NCBI GenBank assembly: GCA_964639285.1
Contig: CAZXCI010000004.1
Location: forward strand, 5,252 to 69,251
Direction: 5' to 3'
From: an uncultured Candidatus Saccharibacteria bacterium
Lineage (GTDB): Bacteria; Patescibacteriota; Minisyncoccia; Phycocordibacterales; XYD1-FULL-46-19
DNA length: 64,000 nucleotides
Position numbers and translations under genes: made by a program. Of this stretch, positions 924 to 46,689 are shown piece after piece. Numbering within the stretch: position 1 is the stretch's first letter; each line of letters begins with the position of its first letter. The notes beneath the pieces are model-generated. The model was not told the DNA's origin. It saw only the letters and a list, made by a program, of their open reading frames with translations, and did not search any database.

Positions 924-933
924 ATCCACCGAT

Positions 934-3135: not shown

Positions 3136-3211
3136 AATAAAAATGAAGCTAAATTAATAATAGCCTCATTAAATCAGAGGGCTAAAATTCAATTCGGAAA
3201 ATAACAGGTTG

Positions 3212-3982: not shown

Positions 3983-4078
3983 AGGTAGTTAAAAAAAGAG
4001 AAAAACCTTATATTTCAAGGTATTTTTGATTGCTTGAAAACGAAAAATATGGTATAATAGGGTCATTATTAGCTAATT

Positions 4079-4330: not shown

Positions 4331-4343
4331 AACAAATTTATTG

Positions 4344-5402: not shown

Positions 5403-5403
5403 A

Positions 5404-6156: not shown

Positions 6157-6166
6157 CAAATAAATA

Positions 6167-7273
6167 ATGGAAGAAAAATCTGGGAAAAACCTCAAATCAC
6201 ACCAATACTACTCAGACCTCTACGATCGCCACACTGTTGAAGAATGTCGGCGCTGGGTCAAAAAATCAGACGACAAAGAACAAATAAATAAAGGAGTTAA
6301 AGATCTCAAAATAACCCGAGCTAAGGCAAAAATCGTACTCAAGTGTGTTAACGAACTCTCGCTTTATTTCATTTCTGGTGAACGCTATGCCAATAAATCA
6401 ATGACAATTCGTGAATGGGAAGAAAGAGACAGAGCTCGAGATGAGTTACTAGAAAAGGCTAAAGCCCCCGATTCAATCGCTTGTTTATCTTGTGGTCGTC
6501 TAATGTTTGTTTCTTCTAAACACCTTGACCTTGGAGGTGTAAAAGGTCCCGAGCGTGTCCTCTTTATGTATGATTGCCCTCTTGGTCACTTACCTCGTCG
6601 AGCTTTCTATCACACAGGTGAAGAATGGCGTCGTCCTCCTCACGAATGTCCTAAATGTAAATCTGAATTTAAAAGAGAAACCGAGCGAGAAGAAGGAAAG
6701 AAAATTGTTATGAAATACGCCTGTCACAAATGTGGCTATGTCGAAAATGAAGAAATAGACCTAATTGATAAGCCTAAGGAAAAAGAGAAGATTGACCGAG
6801 ATTTTGCAAAAGATAGAGATCGTTTTTGTTTGTCTAAAGAGGAGGGTGAAAAATATCTTGAGGGAAAAGCGACATTAGAATCAATCGGACCCCTTCTTGA
6901 AGAATGGAAAGAAAGGGATGAGCACAAAGAAGAATACGAAGCTGTGTCTAAACTCAAGAAATTAAAAATAACCGAACTTGAGGAATTGTTAATTCCCACC
7001 TTAGAAAAAGCTGATTATACTAAGCTTCAATTCAAAGATCCTGAGATGAATAAAGATGTTTTTCTTCCTTTTACTGTTTACGACAAACAAGCCAATCGGA
7101 GTGATCGAGAAAGCGAGATCAAACTCAAAAAATTGCTCGATAAGACCCTTGAAGATACTAATTGGCGACTTATGAGTGACGGGGTAAATTATCGCTTAGG
7201 AATGCTTAGTGGACGGCTAAGGGGTTATGAAAGAGAAGAAGATATGCTGAAAATTGTATATCTTTCTAATTAA
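6167..7273 (+). CDS. hypothetical protein with two zinc-ribbon-like Cys pairs
   Basis: CLSCGRL...DCPLGH and ECPKCK...CHKCGY pairs; charged K/E-rich C-terminal half. Confidence 0.4.
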   Translation: MEEKSGKNLKSHQYYSDLYDRHTVEECRRWVKKSDDKEQINKGVKDLKITRAKAKIVLKCVNELSLYFISGERYANKSMTIREWEERDRARDELLEKAKAPDSIACLSCGRLMFVSSKHLDLGGVKGPERVLFMYDCPLGHLPRRAFYHTGEEWRRPPHECPKCKSEFKRETEREEGKKIVMKYACHKCGYVENEEIDLIDKPKEKEKIDRDFAKDRDRFCLSKEEGEKYLEGKATLESIGPLLEEWKERDEHKEEYEAVSKLKKLKITELEELLIPTLEKADYTKLQFKDPEMNKDVFLPFTVYDKQANRSDRESEIKLKKLLDKTLEDTNWRLMSDGVNYRLGMLSGRLRGYEREEDMLKIVYLSN

Positions 7274-7296
7274 AAATCATTATTTAAAAATAAAAT

Positions 7297-8001
7297 ATGG
7301 AAAATAAAAAAGAATTCCTCGGGACACTTAAACAGATTTCGCCAAGGCTTTTAGTTGACGAGAAAGACGAAAAAGAAATCCAAAACTTCTTTCTTATCCT
7401 TGGCCTTATCTTTAACGATTTAAAAGGTCTGGTGTTTTTTCAAAAATTTCTTGAAGAAAATTACCGGAAACCAAAGGAAGATGAGACGACCGAACATGCT
7501 GGGGAATACAATGGGCTAATGGCTCAAGCTGATAGACTACTAATCTCCACAGTTGGCGAATTTTACAAATTTATAGAAAAAAATAAATCTGTATTAAACA
7601 GCTACCCTTTTTTATTTATTATTAAAAAACTTAGCCCAAATATCAGAAATAAATGGAGTGACCTTGTTAATTTAGAGCATGGTTCAACCATTTTGTCGAA
7701 AATAGCAAAAATCAGATCAAATGTTGCCTTTCATTATGATCACCCGATGAAAGTATTAAGGAAAGGATTTATTGGTAGCTTCTTTTCAGAAAGAAAGAAT
7801 ATCGCTCAACATCTGAAAGCTTGCTATTCTCTTGGTGAAGATATGGAACATACTCGCTTTTATTTTTCAGATGCATCCGCTCAAGACTACGTCAATTCTT
7901 TAATCGGTGCTGAAGATAGGGCAAAAATTAAGGGATCTGTAGAAGACATGAACAACACGATTCAGGCTTTGCTAAGGGCATATTTGGAAAATCTAAAATA
8001 A
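7297..8001 (+). CDS. hypothetical all-alpha protein, possible HEPN-like Rx4-6H motif
   Basis: RSNVAFH matches Rx5H; last gene of the tight four-gene operon. Confidence 0.35.
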   Translation: MENKKEFLGTLKQISPRLLVDEKDEKEIQNFFLILGLIFNDLKGLVFFQKFLEENYRKPKEDETTEHAGEYNGLMAQADRLLISTVGEFYKFIEKNKSVLNSYPFLFIIKKLSPNIRNKWSDLVNLEHGSTILSKIAKIRSNVAFHYDHPMKVLRKGFIGSFFSERKNIAQHLKACYSLGEDMEHTRFYFSDASAQDYVNSLIGAEDRAKIKGSVEDMNNTIQALLRAYLENLK

Positions 8002-8014
8002 TCTTTAATTTGTT

Positions 8015-8049
8015 AAAAAGTGTCACTTTTGTCACTTTTTGCTAGAATG
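8015..8049. repeat. 35-bp direct repeat copy 1 (palindromic operator-like, AAAAGTGtCACTTTT plus GTCACTTTTT)
   Basis: Identical 35-mer aaaaagtgtcacttttgtcactttttgctagaatg at 8015-8049 and 19948-19982. Here it is followed by TATAAT. Confidence 0.85.
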
Positions 8050-8068
8050 TATAATATATTTAGCCATT

Positions 8069-8599
8069 ATGGTTTTAGATGACAATATAAAACATTATAA
8101 AAAGGAACTCGGGGATCTACCCTTGTGGTTAAAATATGCAGTCGCTATCGCCACTATTTTTGGAACCATATTTGGCGGTTGGGGTGTATATATAGTTATT
8201 AGTGATAAAAACAATAAAGATCGATTGTTAGACAGCACGACTGCAACATCCTCAATTCCAATAAACATAACGAGTATATTATCTATGGCTCTTCATAAAG
8301 ATACTGCAATGGAACAGAGAGATTTTTTAAATAAGTATGAGGATGTTAAAGTCTTTGTCGATGGATATTTCAAAGATATATTGAATTACGGCGAAAACTA
8401 CCAAGTGTTTATAGATTCTTCCCTTTTACCTTTCAGAAATATACCGATTGTGTGCTCCTTAGACAATTTAAGCGAAGATGAAAAAAGAGAGTTATTCCTA
8501 TTCAAAAAACGTGACAAAGTATTACTTAGAGGTGTATTCACAGGTGGTAATTACAATGGAATTGCATGGTACGTGAAAGAGTGTCGCGTAGAAAAATAG
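8069..8599 (+). CDS. small membrane protein (cassette between repeat A and repeat B)
   Basis: ORF track 8039..8599 begins at TTG inside the repeat; the first ATG is at 8069. Hydrophobic segment (YAVAIATIFGTIFGGWGVYIVI). Confidence 0.4.
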   Translation: MVLDDNIKHYKKELGDLPLWLKYAVAIATIFGTIFGGWGVYIVISDKNNKDRLLDSTTATSSIPINITSILSMALHKDTAMEQRDFLNKYEDVKVFVDGYFKDILNYGENYQVFIDSSLLPFRNIPIVCSLDNLSEDEKRELFLFKKRDKVLLRGVFTGGNYNGIAWYVKECRVEK

Positions 8600-8600
8600 A

Positions 8601-8614
8601 GGTGCTCGAGTTGC
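8601..8614. repeat. 14-bp direct repeat B copy 1 (ggtgctcgagttgc)
   Basis: Exact repeat of 19985-19998. Lies 2 nt after the cassette gene stop. Confidence 0.7.
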
Positions 8615-8801
8615 TTCACCAATGATTATAAATTACACTAAAAATAACCTTATGGGGCTTGACCGAGAAAGGTTCTAGCTCTAGTCGGCCAGCCAGCTTG
8701 AGCTAGCTCAAAGATAACTAGTTTGAAGACAAAAAACACTTTTTATTTCGAAGGTGTTTTTTGTTGTTTTATATTACAACAAACTATGCTATAATCTTTG
8801 T

Positions 8802-9008
8802 ATGAAAGATGATGCCAAAAAGTTGGGAGAAAATCTCAAAAAACTTAGGATCAAAAAAGATATTAGCCAAATAGAACTCGCTCGTATGTTGAGTGTTGAT
8901 CGATCTTTTGTGAGTAATATCGAGAATGGAAAAAATAATCCAACTCTTTCAACCATTACTAGCTTAGCCAAGGCGTTAGGTGTTTCAACTAACGAACTTT
9001 TAAAATAA
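8802..9008 (+). CDS. XRE-family HTH transcriptional regulator
   Basis: ISQIELARMLSVDRSFVSNIENGKNNPTLSTITSLAKALGVSTNEL is a classic Cro/C1 HTH; TATAAT lies 11 nt upstream. Confidence 0.75.
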   Translation: MKDDAKKLGENLKKLRIKKDISQIELARMLSVDRSFVSNIENGKNNPTLSTITSLAKALGVSTNELLK

Positions 9009-9009
9009 T

Positions 9010-10320
9010 ATGTCGTCATCAATAACAAACACCGGTGATAATACGCTTTCGTCAAACTTAAAGAGCATTTTGCCTAATTGCGATAAGGTAGATGCTTTGG
9101 TTGGATATTTTTACTTCTCTGGTTTTCGGGATTTACATAATGAACTAAAAGATAAACAAATTAGAATCTTGGTTGGAATGGATATTGATAAGAAAATTAT
9201 TGATAAAGTATCAACACTCAAAGATTTAAACCTAGACTCATATACAACAGATACAAAAACATCTTCTCGCTCTATTGCAAAGGATGATTACATTGAGAAC
9301 TTTTCAAGGATTTTTAACGACACAGATTTTTTTGATAATGACGAATCTCAGAAAGCTTTTGAGATATTTTTTTCGCAGGCAGACGAGACTAAAGAGTTAA
9401 ATATTTATAAAATCGAACACAAGATCTTAACACTAACGACTTGCGCGGTTATGGAAGATAAAAATAATTTAACCTCTTTTGAAATTGACGGTGTTAAATT
9501 TTCTCATTGGGAATTTAATTATCGAGACGGTTGGACAAATGACGCTTGGTTAGCGACGGCAGAAATTTCAGCTGAAAGTTTTTTGGATGCTTTAAATGAA
9601 TTAGCGAGAAAACTTTCAAAATTAATCTCTCGTATTTCTTTAATTTCCCAATCTTATATTGAATATATCAACGAACCATTTCTTATTCATAAAAAAGGGA
9701 GTGACGTATTTTTCTTCCGCTACGTAGCAGATGCTCATGTTGGAGGATTGATGTTTATGGAAAATGAACAAAAAGCTTTAAATCAACTTCTTAATAATAA
9801 AAACGTTCCAGAACCTTTTTATTATTATTGGAATGATGCAATCAACGCTTCTGGGTATTCAGCCAAATTACTTCTCATGTTTTCTGCGATTGAGTCACTT
9901 GTTAAAGATAATGGTAAAAAAAATTGGAATTTAACAAATGAAATATTAGGAAAAGATCTAGTTAAAGAATTGTTTGGGACGAAAGAAAATTCAAATACTG
10001 GACTTAGGCACAGACTTGTCCATGGAGAATATTTTGGAAATCTCGATCATGGGAAAAATTATCTGGAACTCGTTCACAATAAAGTAATATCTTACTTTAA
10101 TAAAAAAGTTTTAGACGAAAAATTAATACTAGAAAATATTGTTAATCCTCAGAGAAATTTGTTTGGAAATAAAGAACAAGAAAATTTCTTCTTGAAGGGT
10201 AAAGTCGAGCATAGAGATTTAAATCTGAAAGAAGTACTCAAAGATTTTGATGAAAACCGACCAATTTTACCCCAAAATTATGAAATTATTTATGACAAAA
10301 ATCTAGTGAATGTCTATTAA
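9010..10320 (+). CDS. hypothetical 436-aa protein with PLD-like N-terminal signature, co-operonic with the XRE regulator
   Basis: VDALVGYFYFSGFRDLHNELKDKQIRILVGMDID resembles the a.GYF..SGf..l...l....iRiLvG N-terminus of PLDc_2/NgoFVII-type nuclease domains; starts 1 nt after the XRE stop. Confidence 0.4.
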   Translation: MSSSITNTGDNTLSSNLKSILPNCDKVDALVGYFYFSGFRDLHNELKDKQIRILVGMDIDKKIIDKVSTLKDLNLDSYTTDTKTSSRSIAKDDYIENFSRIFNDTDFFDNDESQKAFEIFFSQADETKELNIYKIEHKILTLTTCAVMEDKNNLTSFEIDGVKFSHWEFNYRDGWTNDAWLATAEISAESFLDALNELARKLSKLISRISLISQSYIEYINEPFLIHKKGSDVFFFRYVADAHVGGLMFMENEQKALNQLLNNKNVPEPFYYYWNDAINASGYSAKLLLMFSAIESLVKDNGKKNWNLTNEILGKDLVKELFGTKENSNTGLRHRLVHGEYFGNLDHGKNYLELVHNKVISYFNKKVLDEKLILENIVNPQRNLFGNKEQENFFLKGKVEHRDLNLKEVLKDFDENRPILPQNYEIIYDKNLVNVY

Positions 10321-10361
10321 AAGCTTAGAAATTGCCATATTATTAAGCTACCAAAGCAAAA

Positions 10362-10392
10362 GGGCCTGCGCGGAATAAATCCTTGCAGGCCC
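10362..10392. terminator. bidirectional hairpin terminator between convergent genes
   Basis: GGGCCTGCgcggaataaatccttGCAGGCCC, 8-bp GC stem. Confidence 0.55.
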
Positions 10393-10396
10393 TGTG

Positions 10397-12073
10397 TTAG
10401 ATAGTTCTAAGCAACTTGCGTGCCTTCTGCTCGGCCATGGCGACATACTCGTGAAAGTCGTCGACTTTGTTTAATTTGTTGTCAGCGATGAGATAAGCGA
10501 AATCGATTCTTGCCTTCTCAAGGAAATCGCGGTCATGAGATACCAAGATCACGGTTCCCTTGTAACTCGATAGAACTTCTTCAAGTGCTTCGACAGCTTC
10601 GGCGTCAAGATGATTGGTTGGCTCATCAAGCACTAAAGCGTTAACCGACAACAGAGAGAATAGGCTGAGCAATAAGCGAGCACGGCCACCCGGACTAATC
10701 TCAGAGATTTTGCCTCGGATGTCTTTCTCTCCGAAGCCAAACCTCACTAGGGCGGCGAAAACTTCCTGATCGATTCGTCCCGTTCGCTCTTTGATAAAAG
10801 CGAGCAAAGTTTCTTCGCGAGAGAGTGTCTCGTGCTCTTGCATCATGTTGCCGATCTTGAGACCAGAACCAATTGAGACTTGACCAGAGATCGGGGCCAG
10901 TTTGCCCGTGATCGTCTTGAGGAGTGTTGACTTGCCACTGCCGTTAAGCCCAAGAAAACCGACTCGATTGCCGTAACTGATGGCCAAACTAATCGGTCCA
11001 ATTTCAAACCGACCAGGATAACCAGCAACTACTTGGTCAAGCGAGATATCCATCGGACTACCATTGCTGTAGGCTTCAAGCGAGATAGACAACGGTTCGT
11101 GATCAACGACTCTTTCCACTTTATCCATTCGTTCGATCCGCTTCTCAAGAACCTTGGCCACCTTACCGGACTTTGACGATTTGTCTTGCTTGAAACCGCG
11201 CAAGAACTTATCATTGTCGCTACCTTGCCAACGAGAACCGCGAGTTGCTGCCGCTTTTTTCTCTCTGGCTTGTTCGGTGAGTCGGCTTATTTCCTCCTGT
11301 TGTTGACGATACTGCTCTTTCTGTCGGCTACGATCTTTCGCTTTTCGTTCGAGATACTCACTATATGAGCCGTTGCTCACATTGAGCAATCGAGTTTGTC
11401 GATCAAGTTCGAAAACTCGATCGGTTACTCGATCTAAGAAGCGTCGATCGTGCGAGACGATGATGCAGGCCACATCAGACTTCAACAAAAAATCTTCCAA
11501 CCAAATCAAGGCTGGCAGATCCAAGTTGTTCGTCGGCTCGTCGAGCAGAAGCAGGTCGATGCCGGTTAGCAGGATGCCTATCAGAGCAACTTTGCTCTTT
11601 TGACCGCTAGACAGATCGGATAACGGCCGATCAAGTCCAACATTGTCCATACTGAAACCAGACATCATCACTTCGGCTCGATGTTTGAGTGAGTAGCCAT
11701 CGAGATGGTCATAACGCTCATGGACGTTGGCATAGTGATCGCTTATCGCTTTGTCACTCAAACCAGTTTCCAGTCGAACCAACTCTTCTTCCAGTGCGGC
11801 GATACCTGTCACCCGGTGCAGATACTGCCAAATCGTCTCGGTCCCAGCCATGCTGGTATCTTGGGGCATATAGCCAAGACAGGTGCCTCGACTAATTTCG
11901 ACTTGACCGCTCTCTGCTACATCCAAACCAGCGATAATCTTAAGCAGGGTTGTTTTACCAACCCCATTACTACCAACCAAAGCCACTCTTTGCCCACGTT
12001 CCAAGCTAAAGGAGACGTCGGAGAACACGACTTTAGTACCGTAGCTTTTGCTGATTTTCTTAACTTTTAGCAT
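10397..12073 (-). CDS. ABC-F family ATPase (EttA/ARE-like translation factor; two ABC domains, no TM)
   Basis: Two Walker A motifs (GSNGVGKTT, GLNGSGKST), two LSGGQ-type signatures, charged ~85-aa interdomain linker; GC richer than the host. Confidence 0.75.
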   Translation of the reverse strand: MLKVKKISKSYGTKVVFSDVSFSLERGQRVALVGSNGVGKTTLLKIIAGLDVAESGQVEISRGTCLGYMPQDTSMAGTETIWQYLHRVTGIAALEEELVRLETGLSDKAISDHYANVHERYDHLDGYSLKHRAEVMMSGFSMDNVGLDRPLSDLSSGQKSKVALIGILLTGIDLLLLDEPTNNLDLPALIWLEDFLLKSDVACIIVSHDRRFLDRVTDRVFELDRQTRLLNVSNGSYSEYLERKAKDRSRQKEQYRQQQEEISRLTEQAREKKAAATRGSRWQGSDNDKFLRGFKQDKSSKSGKVAKVLEKRIERMDKVERVVDHEPLSISLEAYSNGSPMDISLDQVVAGYPGRFEIGPISLAISYGNRVGFLGLNGSGKSTLLKTITGKLAPISGQVSIGSGLKIGNMMQEHETLSREETLLAFIKERTGRIDQEVFAALVRFGFGEKDIRGKISEISPGGRARLLLSLFSLLSVNALVLDEPTNHLDAEAVEALEEVLSSYKGTVILVSHDRDFLEKARIDFAYLIADNKLNKVDDFHEYVAMAEQKARKLLRTI

Positions 12074-12191
12074 AGTTCTTAGTCTCCTTTCCCTTGTTGT
12101 TAGGCCTAATTGCCTAGAATTATAGCATTTACGAAGAACACCCCAAAGTGATTCTACTCTAATTTACCATAATGTAAATACTATAAAACTA

Positions 12192-12218
12192 AATCCCCGA
12201 GTAGTCCAGAGCTACTCG
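12192..12218 (-). terminator. rho-independent terminator of the rSAM-MTAP operon
   Basis: CCCCGAGTAGtccagagCTACTCGGGG, a perfect 10-bp stem followed by a U-run on the minus strand. Confidence 0.6.
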
Positions 12219-12240
12219 GGGATGGGAACAAAGGGATAAT

Positions 12241-13137
12241 TCAGCTTTCATAGTAGGCTTTGATGGAGGTTTCGGCGCATCGACACTGCATCCGACTGGA
12301 CATCAGATCGATAAAACCGAGAAGTAACTGCTTGGTTCTGGCGATATCGTCTCGAAAGACGGTCAGCACTGCTTCCCGATTCGATGTATTAAAAAGGTCC
12401 ATGGTTAAGGCCTTACCAACACCGACATCATAGTCGGTGATCGCGGCAATCGCTCCGTAGCACAACCCCAATTCGCGGGCAAAGTAACATTCGGGATATT
12501 GAGTCATGTTGACCAGATCCCAACCATTCTTCGCCAGCCACTCGCTTTCTGCTCGTGTCGAGAAGCGAGGACCTTGGATCACCGCAACTGTCCCAGTCGG
12601 GGTGACAGCTAACGGAATTCTCCTTGCCAGCTCGATTAAAAGCATTCGCATTTCGGTACAATAGGGGTTAGCCATCGGTAGGTGCAGAAACGAGTGGTCC
12701 GTCTCGAAATGATCGTCTCGACCCCACGTCAGATTGACGAATTGATCAAGAACAACCAAACTTCCCGGGACTAACTCCTTTTGCAAACTACCGGCGATAC
12801 AAGTCGCAACAATGTGACGAACACCGATTTCCTTCAATGCCCACAAATTGGCTTTGTAGGGCACGCGATGCGGTGGCCAGTTGTGCTTTTCTCCGTGTCT
12901 TGGTAGAAAAGCGACAACTTTTCCGGCATATTCTCCGATCAAGATTTGATCAGACGTTGGACCGTAAGGGGTGACAACATCAACCTTCTCAATCGGATTT
13001 AACTCGGAAAAACTGCATAGGCCGGAACCGCCGATGATCGCTAGCTCGGGTCTTTGGCCCGAAGCCAGTTTAACACTTGAACTTGGACCAGATGAGCTCA
13101 TTGAACACCTCCTGCGTAAAAACGCGACTAGATTCAT
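12241..13137 (-). CDS. mtnP: 5'-methylthioadenosine/purine nucleoside phosphorylase (MtnP/MTAP family)
   Basis: ELAIIGGSGL N-terminal PNP motif and family-like length; likely start at the internal MSSSGP (13101). Overlaps the rSAM gene end. Confidence 0.6.
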   Translation of the reverse strand: MNLVAFLRRRCSMSSSGPSSSVKLASGQRPELAIIGGSGLCSFSELNPIEKVDVVTPYGPTSDQILIGEYAGKVVAFLPRHGEKHNWPPHRVPYKANLWALKEIGVRHIVATCIAGSLQKELVPGSLVVLDQFVNLTWGRDDHFETDHSFLHLPMANPYCTEMRMLLIELARRIPLAVTPTGTVAVIQGPRFSTRAESEWLAKNGWDLVNMTQYPECYFARELGLCYGAIAAITDYDVGVGKALTMDLFNTSNREAVLTVFRDDIARTKQLLLGFIDLMSSRMQCRCAETSIKAYYES

Positions 13138-14395
13138 CCATCGCCATAAGGTTGCCAGTTAACTCGCGACAACCCCAGGCGCAACCAGCTCCACACAAAC
13201 TCTTGAAATCATCCTCACGGAAACCGGGGTGATAGAGTGGCAGACGTTTCCGCCACTCAGTGACAACTGACGTGTTCCAGATTCGGAAATCCGAGGCCAA
13301 CACTTGAACAGCACCAAGCTCTTCTCTCGCGAATGGACAATTGGACACCTGGCCGTTGGCCAAGACAACCAATTGATTACCGTAGCAAGTACAATCAACA
13401 GGGAAGAAATCTTGACCATCAAAGGCCTCAATCTTTTTCTCCATCTGGTAATCGCCATGATGCTTAGCGTTGGCGATTACCGCTTGGGCCGCTTGGTGAT
13501 AATAACGATCCAGACCATCAACTCCGACAATCTCAAGCAGAGCTTTCCCTTTTAGGAAATTGAAGCCGAATTTCTCGACTCCGAGTCCTTCAAAGAACTG
13601 GCTGTAACTCTCGAGCTGATCGATGTTGTGTGGGGTGATCGTTACCGAAGCGAAGGTCTTAACCCTATGATTAACAAGGGCATTGATCGCTTCAACCGTT
13701 CGCTCATAGGTGCCTTTCCCACCAGCATCGGGACGATAGATATCATTGATCTCGGGTGGGCCATCAAGCCCCACCGCTACCAACAAATCATATTCTCGAC
13801 ATAGACGCAGGAAATTATCGTTTACCAACGAGCCGTTGGTTGTCACCATCAGGAAGATACGCGAAGTCGGCAAAGCACCATTCTCGCGCAAACCTTTCAA
13901 GTAGACAAGGACATCCTCCATCACTTCGCAGTTCAGGAGCGGTTCGCCTCCATAGAAAATGACATAGTAATCAATCTCCGGGTCAGCGACTTCCCTCAGA
14001 TGATCCAGCCAAAGATTAACTCCGGCGATCGCGTTGTCTCGACTTAAACATTTTTCCGCTTGGGACAAAGAGGCTTTAGCCGGACAGTAACGACAACCAA
14101 AATTGCATCTTTGAGAAAGCATGAGGTACAAGATTACAGGTTGATTCAGCTTCTTTAACAGTTTAGCCGAGACCAACCGATACTCCGCCTCATCCTCTTC
14201 CACTGAGTTGATAACCAATTTCTTGGCCAGCAACCCATCCAGTATCTCTTGAGGAATATCTCCTATCGAACCAGTTGTGAGCCCCACCCATTCGCCATCA
14301 GGCAAATATATAGGACTCGGGTGAAGGTCGTGAAAGAGGGCCACCAAGCCACTCTTCCGGCGAACTCTCAGATAACGCGACCATTGTAGTGACAT
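13070..14395 (-). CDS. radical SAM/SPASM-domain enzyme (anSME/peptide-maturase type)
   Basis: CNFGCRYC matches CxxxCxxC; C-terminal Cys cluster (CTCYGN...NCPF, CGAGCAWGC). Start set at MSLQWS (14395), preceded by AGGAGGG; the longer track ORF has an implausible Arg/Pro-rich extension. Confidence 0.7.
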   Translation of the reverse strand: MSLQWSRYLRVRRKSGLVALFHDLHPSPIYLPDGEWVGLTTGSIGDIPQEILDGLLAKKLVINSVEEDEAEYRLVSAKLLKKLNQPVILYLMLSQRCNFGCRYCPAKASLSQAEKCLSRDNAIAGVNLWLDHLREVADPEIDYYVIFYGGEPLLNCEVMEDVLVYLKGLRENGALPTSRIFLMVTTNGSLVNDNFLRLCREYDLLVAVGLDGPPEINDIYRPDAGGKGTYERTVEAINALVNHRVKTFASVTITPHNIDQLESYSQFFEGLGVEKFGFNFLKGKALLEIVGVDGLDRYYHQAAQAVIANAKHHGDYQMEKKIEAFDGQDFFPVDCTCYGNQLVVLANGQVSNCPFAREELGAVQVLASDFRIWNTSVVTEWRKRLPLYHPGFREDDFKSLCGAGCAWGCRELTGNLMAMDESSRVFTQEVFNELIWSKFKC

Positions 14396-14502
14396 AAGCC
14401 CTCCTTTCTGTTTTGTCGCATCTATATTAAAAGCCCCCGCCAACACAGACGTCATTGTCCGTATCAGCAAAGGGCTTTGTTTTCGCGGCGCGGTGCCCGC
14501 GC

Positions 14503-14679
14503 TTACTCGGCGGTCTGTTTCAGGGCCATCCACTGGTCGTGTGTCAGCTTGACGTGGCCACCGTGGTCGTCCTTGATGTGGACCTCGCCGGGCGTGTTGA
14601 AGTCGACGGTCGGGCAACAACCCTGAACACCGCACAGCGTAACAACGCCCTTTTTCACCATACTCGTGGGAGCATCCAT
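14503..14679 (-). CDS. 58-aa Cys-rich small protein, candidate precursor/substrate peptide of the adjacent rSAM
   Basis: MDAPTSMVKKGVVTLCGVQGCCPTVDFNTPGEVHIKDDHGGHVKLTHDQWMALKQTAE; GGAGG lies 9 nt upstream of the second ATG; same strand, 107 nt upstream of the rSAM gene. Confidence 0.45.
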   Translation of the reverse strand: MDAPTSMVKKGVVTLCGVQGCCPTVDFNTPGEVHIKDDHGGHVKLTHDQWMALKQTAE

Positions 14680-14801
14680 GATACTTCTTACCTCCATATT
14701 ATAGGGAACATTGCCATATACCTTTTCTCCACATAGAGAAAGGTAATGACTCTGGTTAAAGGATAGTATGAATAAAGAGAGGTGTCAAGCTCTCATAGAT
14801 A

Positions 14802-15185
14802 TTATCTCCGGTCAAAATAGTCTTGTACCTTAGCCGCTAAAGCCATCGGCATTAGTTCGGTTTTGCCCCAGAATTCAGTCGCTCCCAGTGCCATAAATTT
14901 TTCTTTAACCTCTTTCTTGTCAAGATTAGTAAAAACAATGACTGGGATATCTTTAGTTTCAGGATCGACTTTCAGTCTTTTTAATACTTCTTCACCATCG
15001 ACATCTTCCATGACAATATCGAGAACGATAACTTTGGGATGCCATCTTTTAGCTTGTTGGATACCAACTTCACCACCATTGGCCATAACACTAGGAATTT
15101 TCATTAAGTCAAAAGCTGATTTGTATAAAAACATCTGATCCGAATCATCCTCAATCATTAATACTTGTTTTATTTCTTCGGCCAT
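14802..15185 (-). CDS. stand-alone response regulator receiver (CheY-like REC) protein
   Basis: VLMIEDD...KVIVLDIVMEDVDG...IPVIVFTN receiver motifs; no output domain. Confidence 0.7.
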   Translation of the reverse strand: MAEEIKQVLMIEDDSDQMFLYKSAFDLMKIPSVMANGGEVGIQQAKRWHPKVIVLDIVMEDVDGEEVLKRLKVDPETKDIPVIVFTNLDKKEVKEKFMALGATEFWGKTELMPMALAAKVQDYFDRR

Positions 15186-15216
15186 AATATTTATTTATAG
15201 TGAGTTTATTGAACTG

Positions 15217-17376
15217 TTATTTAGTTTTTGGGATTGTAATTGTAAATTCAGTACCTTTACCTTCTTCACTAGTGAATGTAATTGTTCCACCAGAGTGAGC
15301 CTCGATGATTTCTTTAGTGATAAAAAGACCTAAGCCAGAACCATCAGTGTACATATCGACAGCATTTTTTGCCCGTTCAAATTTGCCAAACATCCTCGCT
15401 TGATCATCTTTCGGGATACCGACACCCGTATCTTTAACCTTAATGATAATACTTTGGGGATTTTCGTCCAGTAGCACTTCTACCTTACCCTCTTTGGTGT
15501 ACTTCAGCGCGTTATCAACCAGATTGAAGCAGGCCTGTTCCAAGTAATCGGGATCAGAATTGATTTGCGGATTGGCCAGATTAGGAGTAAAGATTAATTG
15601 TAGCTTCTTCTCATTGGCAAAGGTTTGATTGTCAGCAATGACATCAGTCAATATTTTGTTAAGCTCAACGGGTACGATCCTTTTCTCCACAAAACTAAAT
15701 TTCTCTGTATCAAATTCCGAAGCTTGAAGAATGTCGCGAATGATTTGGCTAATCTTAAGCGACTTTTGATAGATATTATCAATCAACTTATTCTGCGTCT
15801 CGACTGGCATTTTTTGGACCGAACCCTCTTTGAACATTGAGATAGTGCCAGAAATAACAGAGATTGGAGTTTTAAGTTGGTGAGAAGCGATGTCCAAAAA
15901 TTCTGACCTCATCGCTAACAATTTCTTTAAGTGTTCCGCTTGCTCTTCAAGCACCTTGGTCTTATCTTGCAAGCTCATTGTCTGCTCGTTGACTTTTTGT
16001 TTGAGTGTTTTGTTGAAATCCTTAACTTCCTTGTATAGTTCGGCGTTATCAATCGCGATCGCGGCTTGATTTGAGAGTGTCATTAGCAACTCAAGGTCTT
16101 CAACTGTAAATGGATCACCGATCACTTTTGGGCCTAAAATAATTAAGCCAATCAAACGCTCGTTACTAACCATGGGCAAACAAATTGTTGCCCCTAAACT
16201 CTTAACTTGCTCATAAACAGCACTAAAAATTTCTCGCTGTTCTTTTAATCTCTCGTCGTTAACTAAAATACTCAATTCTTCAAGTACCACCGGGCGTTGA
16301 TTAGTTTGCAGGTATTTTATAAGTGGGTCTTTTTTTACTGAACGGTCATTCTTCTGAAATAAATTAATCTCTACTCGGGTGATGCCAAGAGATTCTCTGA
16401 TTGTTGTCGAAACCAAATCATTAATTTTAGACAAGTCGGTATAGTGAGTTAATTGACCAGAGACCCGATTAATAGTTTCTTGGTAATTGTAGAGCGAAAA
16501 AAATAAATATTTATTGGCTAATTTTTCAATCCACTTGGAAGAATACTGGAAAAGTGTGACAAAAAGAACCGCAATGACAATTCCAAGGAGGAAAGATTTA
16601 TTAGAATAAGCTCCACCAAGTAGATTATTTTCAAACCAGAGAATAACGTAATAGGCGACATAAGCAATAACACTCGCTCCGGCAAAAATAAAAATCTTTC
16701 GAGCGACGATGCGAATGTCCATTAAGCGATAGCGGATAATTGAATAAGCCACGGTGGCAACATAAGCTGAAGTAAAGATATTAAAAATCGGCGGAATAGG
16801 GATATAATACCAGAGAAAATAATTAGTCGAACCGCCAGCAAAACCAAAAATCATACCTAGTAAAACATATTTAATTTGAAGTCGTTGCAAGCCTTCAGCA
16901 GAACGATAACGTTGATAAAGCAGATAGGAAGAATAGATGACGTAGGCTAACCAAATCGGCAAGAAGATATTAAAGATTGGACCAGCAATTGGCCAGAAAG
17001 CAAAGCCGAGAAGTGGTTCGACATGACTAATAAACAAAGGAGTAGCATTAAATAGAAGGAAGATAACAAAAAGAAAATAACTAAGAACCAGAAATATCTT
17101 TTGTTTTGGGATATTTAAAAAACGAAGGACAAAGTGTAAATAAGTAACCGGAATAAAAATTGCACCCGCCATTAATACTCGGCACCAAAATAGGGCTGAA
17201 TCAGGATTATTAGCAATCTGCCAGAGATAATAAAAGAAACTCCAAAAAGCGATAGTAAAAGCAAAGGCCGAAAAAGCCTGACTCGTTCGGTCTTTTTTAT
17301 TCTTAACTAAAACAAAAAGCCCAAGTCCCAAACTCGTTAAAAAATTAAATAGTGCCGAGAAAGCGTAAAAAGTCAT
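15217..17376 (-). CDS. sensor histidine kinase (multi-TM N-terminus, GAF, HisKA, HATPase_c)
   Basis: H-box SHQLKTPIS, G-boxes (DTGVGIP, GSGLGLFI), ~7 N-terminal hydrophobic helices. Confidence 0.75.
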   Translation of the reverse strand: MTFYAFSALFNFLTSLGLGLFVLVKNKKDRTSQAFSAFAFTIAFWSFFYYLWQIANNPDSALFWCRVLMAGAIFIPVTYLHFVLRFLNIPKQKIFLVLSYFLFVIFLLFNATPLFISHVEPLLGFAFWPIAGPIFNIFLPIWLAYVIYSSYLLYQRYRSAEGLQRLQIKYVLLGMIFGFAGGSTNYFLWYYIPIPPIFNIFTSAYVATVAYSIIRYRLMDIRIVARKIFIFAGASVIAYVAYYVILWFENNLLGGAYSNKSFLLGIVIAVLFVTLFQYSSKWIEKLANKYLFFSLYNYQETINRVSGQLTHYTDLSKINDLVSTTIRESLGITRVEINLFQKNDRSVKKDPLIKYLQTNQRPVVLEELSILVNDERLKEQREIFSAVYEQVKSLGATICLPMVSNERLIGLIILGPKVIGDPFTVEDLELLMTLSNQAAIAIDNAELYKEVKDFNKTLKQKVNEQTMSLQDKTKVLEEQAEHLKKLLAMRSEFLDIASHQLKTPISVISGTISMFKEGSVQKMPVETQNKLIDNIYQKSLKISQIIRDILQASEFDTEKFSFVEKRIVPVELNKILTDVIADNQTFANEKKLQLIFTPNLANPQINSDPDYLEQACFNLVDNALKYTKEGKVEVLLDENPQSIIIKVKDTGVGIPKDDQARMFGKFERAKNAVDMYTDGSGLGLFITKEIIEAHSGGTITFTSEEGKGTEFTITIPKTK

Positions 17377-17461
17377 TTGATATTTTTGAGAAAGAAAAAT
17401 CGCCCCGACTCAGTGTTTATTATAATACCAAGTCCGGGCGACGTCAGGCTCTTTCTGTTGA

Positions 17462-18508
17462 TTAAGCCTTCTTGTGAGCGACAACGATACCGTGGATCAT
17501 AAGGGGCTCGTAAATCAGGCGGAAATCATCGAAGTAGGACTGCTCGATGACGTCAGCGAGTTCTCGTGGCGACCGATAGATCATTGGCCAGTTGATAACC
17601 CACTTGAGGAAGTGCTGTTCGAAGTTCGGAGCAATGTTGCAGGTCAGATACAGACCGCCAGGCATTAGTGACTGCCTGATTTGCGACGACAGATGGATCG
17701 CCGTTTCTTGTGGTAGGTAGTCGAGCAGGCCCAACATCTCTACCACATGCGGTTTGAAGTCACGAGCAAAGTCCAAATTCTTGAGTGCGTTCGCTTGCAA
17801 GGTTTGGATTCGATCACGAACTCCATACTGTTCTGCTAATTGCTCAGCGTAAGCCAGTGCGGCCGGATTGATGTCGACCAGAAGCACTTTGACCGTGATG
17901 CCTTGTCGCTTGAGACGTGACACCACTTTAATCACGGCTTCGGCCGATCCGCAAGCCAAGGACATAATCCGCACTTCCGGCTCATTCGCGAACTGCACCA
18001 GCGCCCGACGGACCTCCATGGTCACAACTTTCAAACGGTTACGCACCGCTTGAGCGTTGACCATACCGATCCAGAAATCATCTAGTAATCCGCCAATTGT
18101 GCGTTTTCCACCAAATTGGTGGTTGTAGATGATGTCAAGAGCCTTCCAACCGGCCGCCGTTCCCTTGATCTGCATCAATTCCGATCCAAGACCATCAAAC
18201 CAGAGAGTATTGATGGACGGACCAGGCAGACCGAGGGCTTGGCGCAATTGTTTCTTGGCCATCACCCAGAGGGTGAGTAACCAAGAGATTGGCAGGGTTA
18301 GCACATACGGCCAGTAGCGCTTCTCGTACACAGAACGAGATGTCCCGACAGTATGCCCAACCGTTCCCGCTTCTTCGGCCAACCAATTGGCTTCCGAGGC
18401 AATTTCGATAGTCAAACCTTGTCCGTTCATTGCTATTCTCTCCTTTCTCAGGTTGTTTTTCACAAAGACCAAGTTATTGTTTGATTCCATTTTCCATGGA
18501 ACCACCAA
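17462..18508 (-). CDS. class I SAM-dependent methyltransferase-like protein
   Basis: IMSLACGSAEAV...VKVLLVDINPAAL is a Rossmann-type motif I / post I; GC-rich; start may be the internal MNGQ. Confidence 0.45.
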   Translation of the reverse strand: MVVPWKMESNNNLVFVKNNLRKERIAMNGQGLTIEIASEANWLAEEAGTVGHTVGTSRSVYEKRYWPYVLTLPISWLLTLWVMAKKQLRQALGLPGPSINTLWFDGLGSELMQIKGTAAGWKALDIIYNHQFGGKRTIGGLLDDFWIGMVNAQAVRNRLKVVTMEVRRALVQFANEPEVRIMSLACGSAEAVIKVVSRLKRQGITVKVLLVDINPAALAYAEQLAEQYGVRDRIQTLQANALKNLDFARDFKPHVVEMLGLLDYLPQETAIHLSSQIRQSLMPGGLYLTCNIAPNFEQHFLKWVINWPMIYRSPRELADVIEQSYFDDFRLIYEPLMIHGIVVAHKKA

Positions 18509-18591
18509 ATATAAGACTAGTCAAGTTTTTGTGCACAAAACTAAAGGGGGCCTGGATTTCTCCACACCCCCCGTTTCTCCTTTCTCTTGTT

Positions 18592-19806
18592 CTAGTTCAT
18601 TTTGCCACCGAAGTAATAGGTCACTCCGGCCGACACAATCCCCACATCAACTACGTTACGACCTGGCGCCAATATCCCGCAATCTGGTTCAGTCTCTCGA
18701 CTGATTTGACCGTAGAGCAGAGCGAGATCAATCCCCAAGTTGCCTTGGTGATTCTTCCAGCCAACGCCGACTGAACCGCAGTACCCCATACCATCAGGAA
18801 TGATCGGGACGGTCTTCGCTTTGGGCACTGATGGCCAGAGACCAGCCAGACCAAAACGCAGTTTCCAGTTCTCATTGATCGTCCTCTCAACACCAAGATG
18901 AAGGCTAGTATTGTTGCTCCAGTTCATCGTTTGCGTGATAGTGATCCAGTCAAAGTCAAACTTGATCTTGTCTAGCCCAGAGTAGTCATAGTGGTTGAAG
19001 TCGAGAGCAATGAGCCACTTGTCGGCTGGCTTGATAGCGACACCCAGACCCAGACGACCTGGAAAACCAATTGAGGTTTTTCCACGAAGTTCGCCCAGAC
19101 CTAAGCCAAGAACAGAGACATCGCTCTGGCAATCCATCTCCACCTTGCGTTTTGAGGCATAGCTGACGCCAAAGGCGAGCCAGTCATACGGTTCATAACG
19201 AAGGCCTAAGCGATACCCTAAACCCCAACCATCAGCTTTGTTTCTGAGAAAGACACCATCGATCGGAAAACCAAGTTGATCGAAGACGGCATTCTCAATC
19301 ATCTGACCGTAAACGACATCGAGGCCGATTCCGACAGACAGTTCGTCGCTAATCTGCCAGGCAATGGTTGGTGTGAAGTTAATCGAAGCGAGCAGGCTCT
19401 TTTGATACTTCAAGCCTTGGTACTCGACTCCGAGACCATCACTTGGGTACAGAGACAGACCCAGCGTCAGTTTGTCATCTAACTGATGAGTTAACGCAAA
19501 CATCGGCATCGGGAACAGTCCTAGCTCCGACTCGTGTTCAGTGTTGCTCCCAGATTCTCGAAAGTGAGCCTTGGTCACAATCGTGTCCAAGTCAAACTCC
19601 AAGAAGTCAGGAGCTTGGCTGATGTTGGCGACGTTGTGGTAAAAGGCGGCACCGTCACCAGAAACCGCGTTATGAGCACCACCCATACCGAGAGCCCGAG
19701 GACTCAGACTACCACCAGGACGGATGTTGCCACCCGCCCAAACGTTGTTAGACATAACCATGACCGACAGGGCCACGATTATGGCCAGTTTCCACCATTT
19801 TTTCAT
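18592..19806 (-). CDS. FadL/TodX-like outer-membrane beta-barrel transporter
   Basis: Signal peptide MKKWWKLAIIVALSVMVMSNNVWA; GMGGAHNAVSGDGAAFYHNVANIS matches the FadL N-terminal signature (G.GGA..A..D..A.f.NPA); alternating beta-strand pattern; GC-rich. Confidence 0.5.
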   Translation of the reverse strand: MKKWWKLAIIVALSVMVMSNNVWAGGNIRPGGSLSPRALGMGGAHNAVSGDGAAFYHNVANISQAPDFLEFDLDTIVTKAHFRESGSNTEHESELGLFPMPMFALTHQLDDKLTLGLSLYPSDGLGVEYQGLKYQKSLLASINFTPTIAWQISDELSVGIGLDVVYGQMIENAVFDQLGFPIDGVFLRNKADGWGLGYRLGLRYEPYDWLAFGVSYASKRKVEMDCQSDVSVLGLGLGELRGKTSIGFPGRLGLGVAIKPADKWLIALDFNHYDYSGLDKIKFDFDWITITQTMNWSNNTSLHLGVERTINENWKLRFGLAGLWPSVPKAKTVPIIPDGMGYCGSVGVGWKNHQGNLGIDLALLYGQISRETEPDCGILAPGRNVVDVGIVSAGVTYYFGGKMN

Positions 19807-19947
19807 GGCCGTTCTCCTTCTGCTAAGTTAATGTGAGTTTGTTGACAAAGGTTAGTATTCCTTTATCAGGATACCATTGATTGAGAGAATAGTCAAATTT
19901 TGTTTTTTTATAAAAAATTGAGAGGGTTGGATAGGGTCAGAAACATC

Positions 19948-20110: not shown

Positions 20111-20695
20111 ATGAATAAGGAAGACACCATTCTTGTTCAGGAAGCCAAAGCTGATACAAGGCAATATGAGGCCTTGTATAAAAAATACGCAGACAAAGTG
20201 TTTAACTACTTCTGGTACCGTACTGGCCACGATAGAGATCTCTCAGAAGACTTGATGCAAGAGACATTTTTACGTGCTTTTCAAAATCTTTCTAAATTTA
20301 AAATCAGAGGGTATTCGTATCTCACTTATCTTCTCACCATTGCTCGCCATCTCCTCATTGATCATTATCGAAAACCAAACTCTCTTCCGATTGAAGATGC
20401 AGAAAATATTCCATATGAAATTACTGAGGATATTGATAGAAAATCTGATGCTGAAGCACTTTGGCATGCCATTCAAGACTTGCCATCTTCTAACAGGGAT
20501 GTTTTGCTCATGCGTTATCAGGACGAAAAATCAATCAAAGATATAGCAACAATTACTGAGTCAACAGAAAATGCTGTAAAACTCAACCTTTCTCGCACTC
20601 GTAAAAAACTAGCAGCCCACCCCCACCTCAAGGATATGGTTGGATTTGGTCAGAAGAAACGAACGTATACAAAACCACGATTTTTAAATAAATGA
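20111..20695 (+). CDS. RNA polymerase ECF-type sigma-70 factor
   Basis: Region 2 (LMQETFLRAFQNL...YLLTIARHLLIDHYRK) and region 4 HTH (IKDIATITESTENAVKLNLSRTRKKL). Confidence 0.7.
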   Translation: MNKEDTILVQEAKADTRQYEALYKKYADKVFNYFWYRTGHDRDLSEDLMQETFLRAFQNLSKFKIRGYSYLTYLLTIARHLLIDHYRKPNSLPIEDAENIPYEITEDIDRKSDAEALWHAIQDLPSSNRDVLLMRYQDEKSIKDIATITESTENAVKLNLSRTRKKLAAHPHLKDMVGFGQKKRTYTKPRFLNK

Positions 20696-20727: not shown

Positions 20728-21069
20728 ATGAAAGACCGTCAAATTATCTACATAATCGGGGCTCTTTTGGTGGCAAGCCTCACTGCAAACATATACTTCT
20801 GGAATAAACCAAAAGAGTTTTCTGTTTCAGGATTAAATAAAGTTGCCACAACTTCTGAGGAGGTTTCTATTGACTCGCCCTACGGATTTCGAAGCGAGGC
20901 TGTAACTGTGTATGAGAATGGGAAAGCTAAGACGTATTCCACTACAACTCCTATTACAGAAAAAGATTTGGAGCAAATGCGAAAACAGACCGAAGCCCGG
21001 TTTAAGGCTATGGATGATTATTTCCGCGAACAAGAGAAATTCTTTAGGTCATTCTGGTACAGCTTCTGA
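20728..21069 (+). CDS. small membrane protein, possible anti-sigma factor
   Basis: Immediately downstream of the ECF sigma gene; single N-terminal TM; no zinc-binding anti-sigma motif seen. Confidence 0.3.
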   Translation: MKDRQIIYIIGALLVASLTANIYFWNKPKEFSVSGLNKVATTSEEVSIDSPYGFRSEAVTVYENGKAKTYSTTTPITEKDLEQMRKQTEARFKAMDDYFREQEKFFRSFWYSF

Positions 21070-46688: not shown

Positions 46689-46689
46689 G

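Follow-up and report, generated by a model that had tools for sequence, protein, structure and literature searches.

Proteins of the OMPP1/FadL/TodX family (Pfam PF03349) are outer-membrane channels for hydrophobic compounds, and include FadL of Escherichia coli, TodX of Pseudomonas putida, TbuX of Ralstonia pickettii and CymD. Rhizobial FadL homologues reportedly help to perceive long-chain acyl-homoserine lactone signals, as Krol and Becker are said to have found in 2014. The 14-strand FadL-like fold is shared by several barrels of Bacteroidota, namely BamG of the beta-barrel assembly machinery (BAM) complex, PorV and PorQ of the type 9 secretion system (T9SS), and FilD. In this work we focused on a FadL-type gene and its neighbours at positions 10397-19806 of a 64,000-nucleotide stretch of DNA (hereafter the window; assembly GCA_964639285.1, contig CAZXCI010000004.1, positions 5,252 to 69,251) from an uncultured bacterium of the Candidate Phyla Radiation (CPR), an unexpected host lineage for such a protein.

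CPR bacteria, or Patescibacteria, account for a large part of the diversity of bacteria. Published work regards them as devoid of an outer membrane (PMC10160955, PMC12102498, PMC11809585); in the words of one study, 'Chloroflexi and CPR lost theirs' (PMC10160955), and a single membrane plus murein has been inferred for a genus of Paceibacteria (PMC11809585). Direct envelope data exist for few CPR (PMC8871954), and it is as a monoderm lineage that they enter the debates on gain and loss of the outer membrane (PMC8871954, PMC10160955).

A preliminary description, made from the sequence alone, had read the block at 10397-19806 as GC-rich foreign DNA in an otherwise low-GC genome of apparent CPR type, and had offered acquisition from a diderm donor, an unusual host envelope or a chimeric contig as explanations. 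The 9.4-kb block is instead composed of two gene cassettes native to CPR of the Paceibacteria type, lying side by side with no foreign insert. Cassette 1 (14803-19908, minus strand, as delimited by blastn) encodes the FadL-family protein, a Methyltransf_20 methyltransferase, a HisKA_7TM/GAF histidine kinase and a single-domain response regulator. Cassette 2 (about 10343-14777, minus strand, with a gene order kept in about 30 metagenome loci) encodes a 64-residue CxxxGCC protein, a radical S-adenosylmethionine (rSAM) enzyme, an MTAP-like phosphorylase and an ABC-F ATPase. The two abut without spacer at about 14.8 kb. Among the open reading frames (ORFs) listed at 10397-19806, seven are large and all of these lie on the minus strand; the families first proposed for them agree with Pfam in all seven cases, but the single block resolves into two separately conserved units. 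That these are native CPR cassettes, neither foreign nor chimeric, we hold with high confidence. The fuller explanation, in which native cassettes are combined with FadL-type passage and sensing of a hydrophobic molecule, appears to us likely, with the strength of its functional part discussed below.

The FadL-family gene (18592..19806, minus strand) encodes 404 residues, assigned to the FadL/TodX-type 14-strand beta-barrel channels by Pfam, an AlphaFold2 (AF2) model and Foldseek. Residues 95-365 match PF03349 (Toluene_X) with 126.3 bits against a cut-off of 29.7. The model, computed from an alignment of 12 clade members, reached a pLDDT of 80.2 and a pTM of 0.78, and predicts a 14-strand barrel plugged by an N-terminal hatch domain. 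In the Protein Data Bank (PDB), Foldseek placed E. coli FadL first (3pgs, TM-score 0.82, E = 1e-23), followed by a P. aeruginosa FadL homologue, TodX, CymD and TbuX; a profile of the clade scored 80.7 bits with CymD, 65.8 with TodX and 51 with FadL, and also matched TbuX. The FadL assignment of the preliminary description was therefore upheld by the family threshold as well as by the predicted fold.

The features expected of an exported barrel are in place. The window protein begins with a signal peptide, MKKWWKLAIIVALSVMVMSNNVWA, followed at the cleavage site by GG, and by inspection the motif AxA/GG[NV]IRPG (the stroke marking cleavage) is found in every clade member. It ends on a beta-signal, ...GVTYYF, with a GGKMN tail; C-termini of the same type (...TYRF, ...TYHF, ...RWLF), some with a tail of 2-5 residues, were seen by inspection across the clade. 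In the hatch, N-V-A in the window protein and N-[VI]-A clade-wide align with the NPA motif of the family (PDB profile, CymD). H56, N57 and A59 are invariant in the clade; the Asn and Ala of NPA are thus retained and the Pro is replaced, and the canonical NPA motif is found neither in the window protein nor in its clade. Between the window and its relatives of 90% identity, dN/dS of the gene is 0.06-0.10. By these sequence measures the gene is intact and under strong purifying selection, and the earlier suggestion that it may be non-functional does not agree with the low dN/dS or with the conserved signal peptide and beta-signal.

The CPR protein resembles the described channels of the family in its Pfam score and predicted fold, its Sec signal peptide, its hatch motif at the NPA position and the C-terminal Phe of its beta-signal. 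It differs from them in being only 15-28% identical to any non-CPR member, in carrying N-[VI]-A instead of NPA, in belonging to a lineage held to lack an outer membrane, and in its fixed position beside a methyltransferase and a seven-transmembrane (7-TM) histidine kinase rather than fad or tod catabolic genes. The E. coli-type FadL equivalog (NCBIfam NF007988) gave 30.4 bits against a cut-off of 585. Among the Bacteroidota barrels, the BamG equivalog (NF053685) was the best NCBIfam match, but scored 44.4 bits against a cut-off of 250; PorV (20 against 90) and FilD (26 against 970) were likewise far under their cut-offs. Foldseek TM-scores to chain F of the BAM complex were 0.62-0.65, clearly poorer than to FadL/TodX, and no BAM, T9SS or pilus genes lie nearby.

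A search of 5.8 billion protein clusters returned 12 FadL clusters at 42-90% identity to the window protein, and then a sharp drop to 28% or less. An exact look-up of the window protein itself gave no record. The NCBI pipeline already names the protein in metagenome-assembled genomes (MAGs), one of the 12 clusters being called 'outer membrane protein transport protein [Candidatus Paceibacterota bacterium]'. When a single genome for each GTDB species was scanned by motif, five loci emerged: two in Paceibacterota (90%), one in Buchananbacteria (43%) and two labelled 'uncultured Gammaproteobacteria' (41%). We reject the label of the first of these two, L008 (CAZHUO010000025.1; locus numbers are ours): it carries mreB-mreC-pbp2, and its MreB has as best named matches proteins of Buchananbacteria, Parcubacteria or Patescibacteria at 79-84% identity, so the gammaproteobacterial label is wrong. 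The label of the second, L010 (CAZCCC010000023.1), is doubted; this contig has the four-gene cassette and no housekeeping gene in reach. Wherever the context could be checked, every relative at 41-90% identity proved to have CPR surroundings, and the gene belongs to a small clade that has so far been found only there. Of the nearest outgroup proteins, some occur in contexts of diderm type, close to genes for a sigma-54 activator and a multihaem cytochrome, and others bear the name Aminicenantes/Acidobacteriota (25%). No relative of the clade was found on viral contigs, and plasmid FadL proteins are at most 26.5% identical. We found in the literature no discussion of FadL or of any beta-barrel outer-membrane protein in CPR, and nothing on this FadL gene in the literature on PF12147 and HisKA_7TM. 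The clade is distinct and deeply separated; its hatch motif is altered, its host lineage was not expected, and its gene partnership is both fixed and new.

This partnership involves three genes. The methyltransferase (17462..18463, minus strand) is a class I enzyme dependent on S-adenosylmethionine (SAM) and matches Methyltransf_20 (PF12147) with 45.6 bits against a cut-off of 21. The TTG start at 18508 given by the ORF finder is probably too early, and a hydrophobic segment at the N-terminus, WPYVLTLPISWLLTLWVMAKK, possibly anchors the enzyme in the membrane. It is 97-98% identical in near relatives (dN/dS 0.03-0.04) and adjoins FadL in 9 of 11 distinct contexts. The sensor kinase (15217..17376, minus strand) has an N-terminal 7-TM region (HisKA_7TM, 61.4 bits), a GAF domain (35.3), HisKA (46.4) and HATPase_c (99.7), all above the Pfam cut-offs, and its dN/dS is also 0.03-0.04. 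The last gene of the cassette (14802..15185, minus strand) encodes a receiver-only response regulator (Response_reg, 55.2 bits), 94-96% identical in L001 and L015; homology to the relatives stops at its stop codon. With their domains above the cut-offs, kinase and receiver protein qualify as a two-component system. Over the three partner genes together, dN/dS between the window and its 90% relatives ranges from 0.01 to 0.04.

In blastn comparisons with L001, L007 and L015, cassette 1 matched at 85-86% identity over 5115 bp, covering exactly 14803-19908. No homology was detected beyond either end of this interval, and the flanks differ from one relative to the next, often carrying defence, recombinase or IS200 genes. 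With one exact matching span and differing flanks, cassette 1 forms a self-contained unit within the flexible genome. Its gene arrangement differs among the loci. In the window, L001-3, L007 and L015 (FadL about 90% identical), FadL, methyltransferase, 7TM-GAF kinase and receiver gene are all co-directional. L010 and L014 (FadL 41-42%) have the same partners, 52-56% identical and transcribed divergently from FadL, and L004/5 and L011/12 (FadL 67-70%) have a shorter 7-TM kinase without GAF together with a divergent methyltransferase (28-36% identical). L013 (FadL 47%) shows a divergent methyltransferase fragment at the contig end, L008 (FadL 41%) a 7-TM-only protein, and L009 of Buchananbacteria (FadL 43%) only a divergent gene for a sigma factor of the extracytoplasmic function (ECF) type. 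A HisKA_7TM protein thus adjoins FadL in the window, L001-3/7, L015, L010, L014, L004/5, L011/12 and L008. The similarity of the FadL proteins is not congruent with that of the partner genes across these loci; the association has accordingly survived exchanges or been re-formed by them, and this speaks for a functional link.

The host of the window is a CPR bacterium, as the preliminary description had guessed, because both the LepA matches and synteny point there. Among the best 120 matches of LepA all named ones are CPR (Candidatus Paceibacterota, Vogelbacteria, Pacebacteria, Parcubacteria group, Patescibacteria group), with identities from 95% down to 64%. Positions 40-62 kb of the window are collinear with L017, a contig of a Paceibacterota MAG carrying a LepA match at 90%; the shared genes encode an LVIVD protein, class II ribonucleotide reductase, a TPR protein, MurJ, LepA, MgsA, Hsp20, PrsW, a class I aminoacyl-tRNA synthetase and TsaD.

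We then considered composition, on which the idea of foreign DNA had been based. The genes for ABC-F, MTAP-like protein, rSAM enzyme, methyltransferase and FadL have a GC content of 48.4-50.9% and a third-position GC content (GC3) of 51-60%, the kinase and regulator genes 37.4-37.5% and 33-36%. The 35 core genes at 20-64 kb average 44.0% GC (standard deviation 2.4) and 43.3% GC3 (5.1), and the genes at 1-10.3 kb 36.1% and 34.0%. The GC mosaic described earlier is real in that five genes are GC-richer and the kinase and regulator AT-rich, but the excess over the core amounts to only 4-7 points, or about 2-3 standard deviations, and a core of 44.0% GC does not fit the 'otherwise low-GC genome' of the preliminary description. 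The contrast is striking mostly because of the AT-rich left flank. This flank (1-10320, 36% GC) had been taken for AT-rich housekeeping genes; it consists mostly of unassignable or hypothetical genes, together with a type II N4/N6 DNA methylase (1858-3135) and a Schlafen/AlbA_2 protein (4230-5402), and is probably an accessory or defence-type island. The windowed composition and tetranucleotide analysis that had been proposed as a check found the strongest deviations from the core at 11-14 kb (z of -3.7 to -4.7 for the composition-normalised signature) and at 18-20 kb (-3.1), the kinase region being core-like. The GC-rich run quoted in the preliminary description does occur, once, at 14587-14618; it lies in the unannotated 64-residue ORF, where it encodes CCPTVDFNTPG, and in none of the genes that had been listed with it.

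One explanation of these values is a recent horizontal import from a GC-richer diderm, in which the GC excess would reflect a donor composition not yet ameliorated, and FadL would be a passenger without use or in decay. It would suit the position of the five genes as the GC-richest of the window, 2 to 3 standard deviations above the core, the tetranucleotide deviation of the same regions and the differing contexts of cassette 1 in near relatives, beside defence and recombinase genes. The distribution of the excess speaks otherwise. In every relative the FadL gene has 45-54% GC (GC3 45-61%) against a local background of 36-46%, and in L013 it stands at 50.5% beside genes of 30-33%. The type-A methyltransferase is likewise GC-rich in the relatives, where kinase and regulator remain AT-rich, and cassette 2 is GC-richer than its flanks by 5-14 points in 13 of 16 loci. 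An excess that recurs in orthologues across hosts of 36-46% GC and persists down to 41% amino-acid identity, far past any amelioration time, cannot be unameliorated donor DNA, and it loses its value as a sign of recent import. A diderm donor for FadL is not visible either, all non-CPR FadL proteins being at most 28% identical to that of the window, whereas orthologues of all eight genes of the block, including those of the conserved ABC-F/MTAP/rSAM cassette, are found in CPR contexts. The kinase and regulator, part of the same conserved cassette, are AT-rich; and FadL, with its dN/dS and its intact signal peptide and beta-signal, is no decaying passenger. As to marks of mobility at the block borders, we found no tRNA gene within 19 kb, no convincing repeats at the borders of block or cassettes and no integrase, with recombinase or IS200 genes occurring near cassette 1 in relatives. 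We consider a recent import very improbable.

An assembly or binning chimera, in which CPR sequence would have been joined to a diderm fragment, could account for the composition steps at about 10.3 kb and 19.9 kb. Against it, cassette 1 has been assembled independently in CPR contexts in at least nine samples or records from ENA, JGI, Logan and NCBI, for example on contigs of 98 and 131 kb labelled Paceibacterota, and in L004 CPR-type housekeeping genes directly flank FadL. Cassette 2 lies on contigs of 84, 288 and 631 kb with CPR names. Within the block, the AT-rich kinase with its core-like signature lies between two GC-rich parts, and both sides of the block are CPR-like, the right one being syntenic with the Paceibacterota MAG. 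A chimera therefore has, in our judgement, next to no probability.

The raised GC content of the cassettes is most readily understood as intrinsic to the genes and maintained in them, rather than as the trace of a recent donor. Synonymous differences per site also follow the genes. In comparisons of the window with L001 and L015, hence within the same genome pairs, they amount to 0.21-0.27 for the methyltransferase, 0.39-0.43 for FadL and 0.58-0.70 for kinase and regulator, and the steps in identity within cassette 1 coincide with gene borders in all three pairwise comparisons. The synonymous sites of the GC-rich genes are under a gene-specific hold, which could come from selection on these sites or from frequent recombination with biased gene conversion. 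Housekeeping synonymous sites are saturated against L017, which is not tied to the genomes of the FadL loci, and they were not used as a formal test. A lesson for other contigs is that a GC step in a CPR contig need not mean foreign DNA, as two conserved CPR cassettes are here intrinsically GC-richer than their surroundings.

The preliminary description had seen a tension between a FadL-type protein and a CPR host without an outer membrane. This tension is real, since both the FadL assignment and the CPR host hold. Conservation of the gene within CPR, and selection on it there, make the tension sharper than a one-off transfer would. A barrel so conserved and so strongly selected, with its export and beta-signal motifs, must function in a lipid bilayer other than the normal cytoplasmic membrane. 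We envisage, as a speculative and rather doubtful reading, that a small clade of Paceibacteria-type CPR has a working FadL-type barrel in a bilayer outside its own cytoplasmic membrane, feeding a hydrophobic nutrient or signal to a dedicated 7-TM kinase and methyltransferase. The bilayer would be either an unseen outer-membrane-like layer, some CPR then being diderm, or the outer membrane of a host cell. If true, either version would break the view of CPR as uniformly monoderm bacteria without outer-membrane proteins.

By analogy with described channels, a mechanism of passage and sensing can be tentatively sketched, to which we give somewhat less than an even chance. The barrel would be exported by Sec and inserted into the lipid layer outside the cytoplasmic membrane, where, like FadL, TodX and CymD, it might let a hydrophobic molecule pass, be it a fatty acid, another lipid or a hydrophobic signal. 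The membrane-embedded 7-TM kinase would perceive this molecule or its effect on the membrane and signal through the single-domain regulator, and the methyltransferase, probably anchored in the membrane, would modify the molecule. CPR are generally held to lack fatty-acid synthesis and are thought to depend on others for lipids, which makes scavenging a plausible purpose of FadL. Perception of a signal would fit the rhizobial precedent. There, a FadL-type channel reportedly stands upstream of a sensor and a hydrophobic signal reaches the cell, a logic only proposed for CPR; the rhizobial sensor is said to be a cytoplasmic LuxR-type receptor unlinked to fadL, whereas in CPR the link is genomic and the sensor a membrane kinase. 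The fixed partnership of FadL, 7-TM kinase and methyltransferase points to a route for the uptake or sensing of hydrophobic molecules.

Several observations weigh against the explanation as a whole. A predicted beta-barrel is hard to place in bacteria held to have no outer membrane. When about 250 kb of CPR contigs with FadL were screened, crudely and with low power, for ORFs resembling outer-membrane proteins, only the FadL genes themselves were recovered. FadL is present without the kinase in L009 and L013. Sequence and profile searches of the PDB with the methyltransferase gave generic class I methyltransferases only, the StiE O-methyltransferase coming second, and its single-sequence AF2 model had a pLDDT of 36. 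Both cassettes deviate from the core in tetranucleotide signature, and the variable flanks together with the incongruence of FadL and partner genes suggest lateral movement of the cassettes among CPR lineages, including into this genome. The taxon labels, finally, come from MAG binning by others and from best-match names, not from a phylogeny.

Some of these observations would also suit another history, in which FadL was captured long ago from a diderm, has been spreading laterally among CPR and acts outside the cell's own envelope, for example in the outer membrane of a Gram-negative host or in vesicles, to siphon host lipids. The clade is patchily distributed over at least five GTDB species in two CPR groups, its flanks vary and contain mobile or defence genes, and the FadL tree is incongruent with that of the partner genes. 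The canonical beta-signal has been kept and could in principle be read by the BAM complex of a host, and the usual description of CPR is that of epibionts that depend on a host and have minimal biosynthesis (PMC12102498, PMC11809585). No delivery system, however, is linked to the FadL gene, and its tight linkage to a 7-TM kinase and a methyltransferase of the cell itself points to the CPR cell as the destination of the substrate. We know of no precedent for the delivery of a 14-strand barrel from one bacterium to another, which also counts against this history, and we regard it as improbable.

Cassette 2 begins with a gene for a 64-residue protein (14503..14697, minus strand; ORF finder), whose sequence has the outline MEVRS...LCGVQGCCPTVDF...DDHGGHVKLTHDQWMALK and a conserved motif, LCGVQGCCPTVDF...DDxGGxVxLTxxQW. 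It matches no Pfam or NCBIfam family. In about 25 loci it is conserved over its full length directly upstream of the rSAM gene, with the consensus LCGVQGCCPTVDFT.P.KV.LKDDFGG.VQLT..QW..LK, and it is a candidate substrate or partner of the rSAM enzyme. The latter (13070..14392, minus strand) is of the peptide-maturase type, with 65 bits for Radical_SAM in Pfam and 13.6 bits for the SPASM domain, under the cut-off of 21.5. Its best NCBIfam models are peptide maturases, all scoring below their cut-offs, led by the FibroRumin maturase (117.6 against 400). Its translation probably begins near 14392 (MSLQWSRY); the ORF as listed, with a GTG start at 14635, extends too far and runs across the 64-residue ORF in another frame.

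The MTAP-like nucleoside phosphorylase (12241..13137, minus strand; PNP_UDP_1, 134.6 bits) falls narrowly short of the two MTAP equivalogs, TIGR01694 (246.9 against 274.85 bits) and NF005876 (283.3 against 306). Its gene always follows that of the rSAM enzyme in the metagenome loci, and it likely removes 5'-deoxyadenosine or methylthioadenosine formed by SAM enzymes. The last gene, 10397..12073 on the minus strand, encodes an ABC-F ATPase without membrane domain, which has two ABC_tran stretches and an ABC_tran_Xtn linker and matches NF000355, 'ribosomal protection-like ABC-F', with 407.5 bits against a cut-off of 380; the named antibiotic-resistance subfamilies of NCBIfam all remained far below their cut-offs. 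It always follows MTAP, and is 91% identical in L019 and 47-63% elsewhere. A consensus scan found, between MTAP and ABC-F, a terminator-like hairpin of a 12-bp stem and a T-run (12193..12223, minus strand; a pattern match only) and a promoter-like site at 12178-12151. To judge from these signals, the ABC-F gene probably forms its own transcription unit.

A metagenome scan with the trimmed rSAM protein gave 52 loci, of which about 30 keep the order small protein, rSAM, MTAP-like, ABC-F, with identities to the window of 47-86% (rSAM), 56-88% (MTAP) and 47-91% (ABC-F). The closest, L019, matches positions 10353-14417 at 81% nucleotide identity and nothing beyond. The contigs include some of 631, 288, 115 and 84 kb, and exact look-up of their ABC-F proteins returned the names Candidatus Vogelbacteria, Zambryskibacteria, Uhrbacteria, Woesebacteria and Patescibacteria group. 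One further record, an 'Aquabacterium' sp. contig of 11.7 kb, is probably a mis-binned CPR contig. The conserved order and the CPR names of the orthologues indicate that cassette 2, too, is native to CPR. It looks like an uncharacterised, widespread CPR system for peptide modification or for a cofactor. As in the rSAM/SPASM peptide-maturation systems (PqqA/PqqE, MftA/MftC, ranthipeptides, sactipeptides), the gene for a small, Cys-containing protein immediately precedes that for a maturase-like rSAM enzyme, and in one relative (L019) M16 and S9 peptidase genes come shortly before the small ORF. It differs from them in that the enzyme reaches no NCBIfam maturase cut-off, its SPASM domain falls under the Pfam threshold, the small protein has no family, and the fixed MTAP and ABC-F partners are not features of the known systems.

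In L019, L032 and L042, and probably also in L029 and L037, cassette 2 has a HisKA_7TM kinase as its immediate neighbour, and the juxtaposition of the two cassettes in the window may not be accidental. One could go further and regard the whole 9.5 kb as one functional supercluster around the 7-TM kinase. From the CxxxGCC protein the rSAM enzyme would make a hydrophobic product derived from a peptide (a signal, an antibiotic or a cofactor) while MTAP would clear the SAM by-products; the ABC-F protein would protect or tune the ribosome, the methyltransferase would tailor the product and FadL would let it cross the outer layer; and the 7-TM kinase and regulator would sense it, in the manner of Agr or Nis systems. 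Apart from the kinases beside cassette 2, this scheme would accommodate the peptidase genes of L019, the absence of a spacer between the cassettes in the window, a non-orthologous rSAM/SPASM gene with a methyltransferase after the FadL-cassette regulators in L010, an ABC-F gene two genes from FadL in L011, and the combination of a 7-TM/GAF kinase, a B12-rSAM gene and ABC-F in L016. For most FadL cassettes, however, no cassette 2 is present within 8-10 kb, and FadL is missing from most cassette-2 loci. The small protein, being conserved over its full length, lacks the leader and variable core of a typical precursor of ribosomally synthesised and post-translationally modified peptides, the separate promoter-like and terminator-like sites suggest separate transcription units, and the 7-TM type may just be the most frequent kind of kinase in these genomes. 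A single supercluster is for these reasons unlikely in our view, and we continue to treat the block as two native cassettes.

The L016 locus (31-11680) has some features of its own. Its 954-residue HisKA_7TM/GAF kinase lies beside genes for an alpha/beta hydrolase and an AMP-binding, acyl-CoA-synthetase-like protein, and downstream of these follow the B12-binding radical SAM-like gene and the ABC-F gene, whose product is 54% identical to that of the window. The arrangement is a hint that lipid-related and rSAM genes are found together with 7-TM kinases of this type.

On the other side of FadL, and divergent from it, the window has a gene for an ECF-type sigma factor (20111..20695, plus strand; Sigma70_r2 and r4_2 in Pfam). 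The sigma factor gene of L009 is also divergent from FadL, but since the two proteins are only 26% identical orthology is not shown, and a link between the sigma factor and FadL is possible but weak. Directly after the sigma factor gene, an ORF of 113 codons (20728-21069, plus strand), with one N-terminal hydrophobic segment and no family match, encodes a candidate anti-sigma factor.

A few other features of the window were recorded. At the left end of the AT-rich island, positions 253-376 (plus strand) match the LOOT RNA of Rfam (RF03000) with 68.4 bits against a gathering score of 46.4. At the other end of the island, 9010-10320 encodes a 436-residue protein without family match, which has the lowest GC content of the window (30.7%). 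In the core, the bacterial class A RNase P RNA was found at 46689-47091 (minus strand) with 110.9 bits against a gathering score of 100, indicating a divergent RNase P RNA. The LVIVD protein of the region collinear with L017 (window 40842-44183, plus strand; L017 1-2227) has 1113 residues and combines LVIVD repeats with a Peptidase_S74 domain, the intramolecular chaperone of endosialidase; syntenic in the related MAG, it is probably a surface or fibre-like protein.

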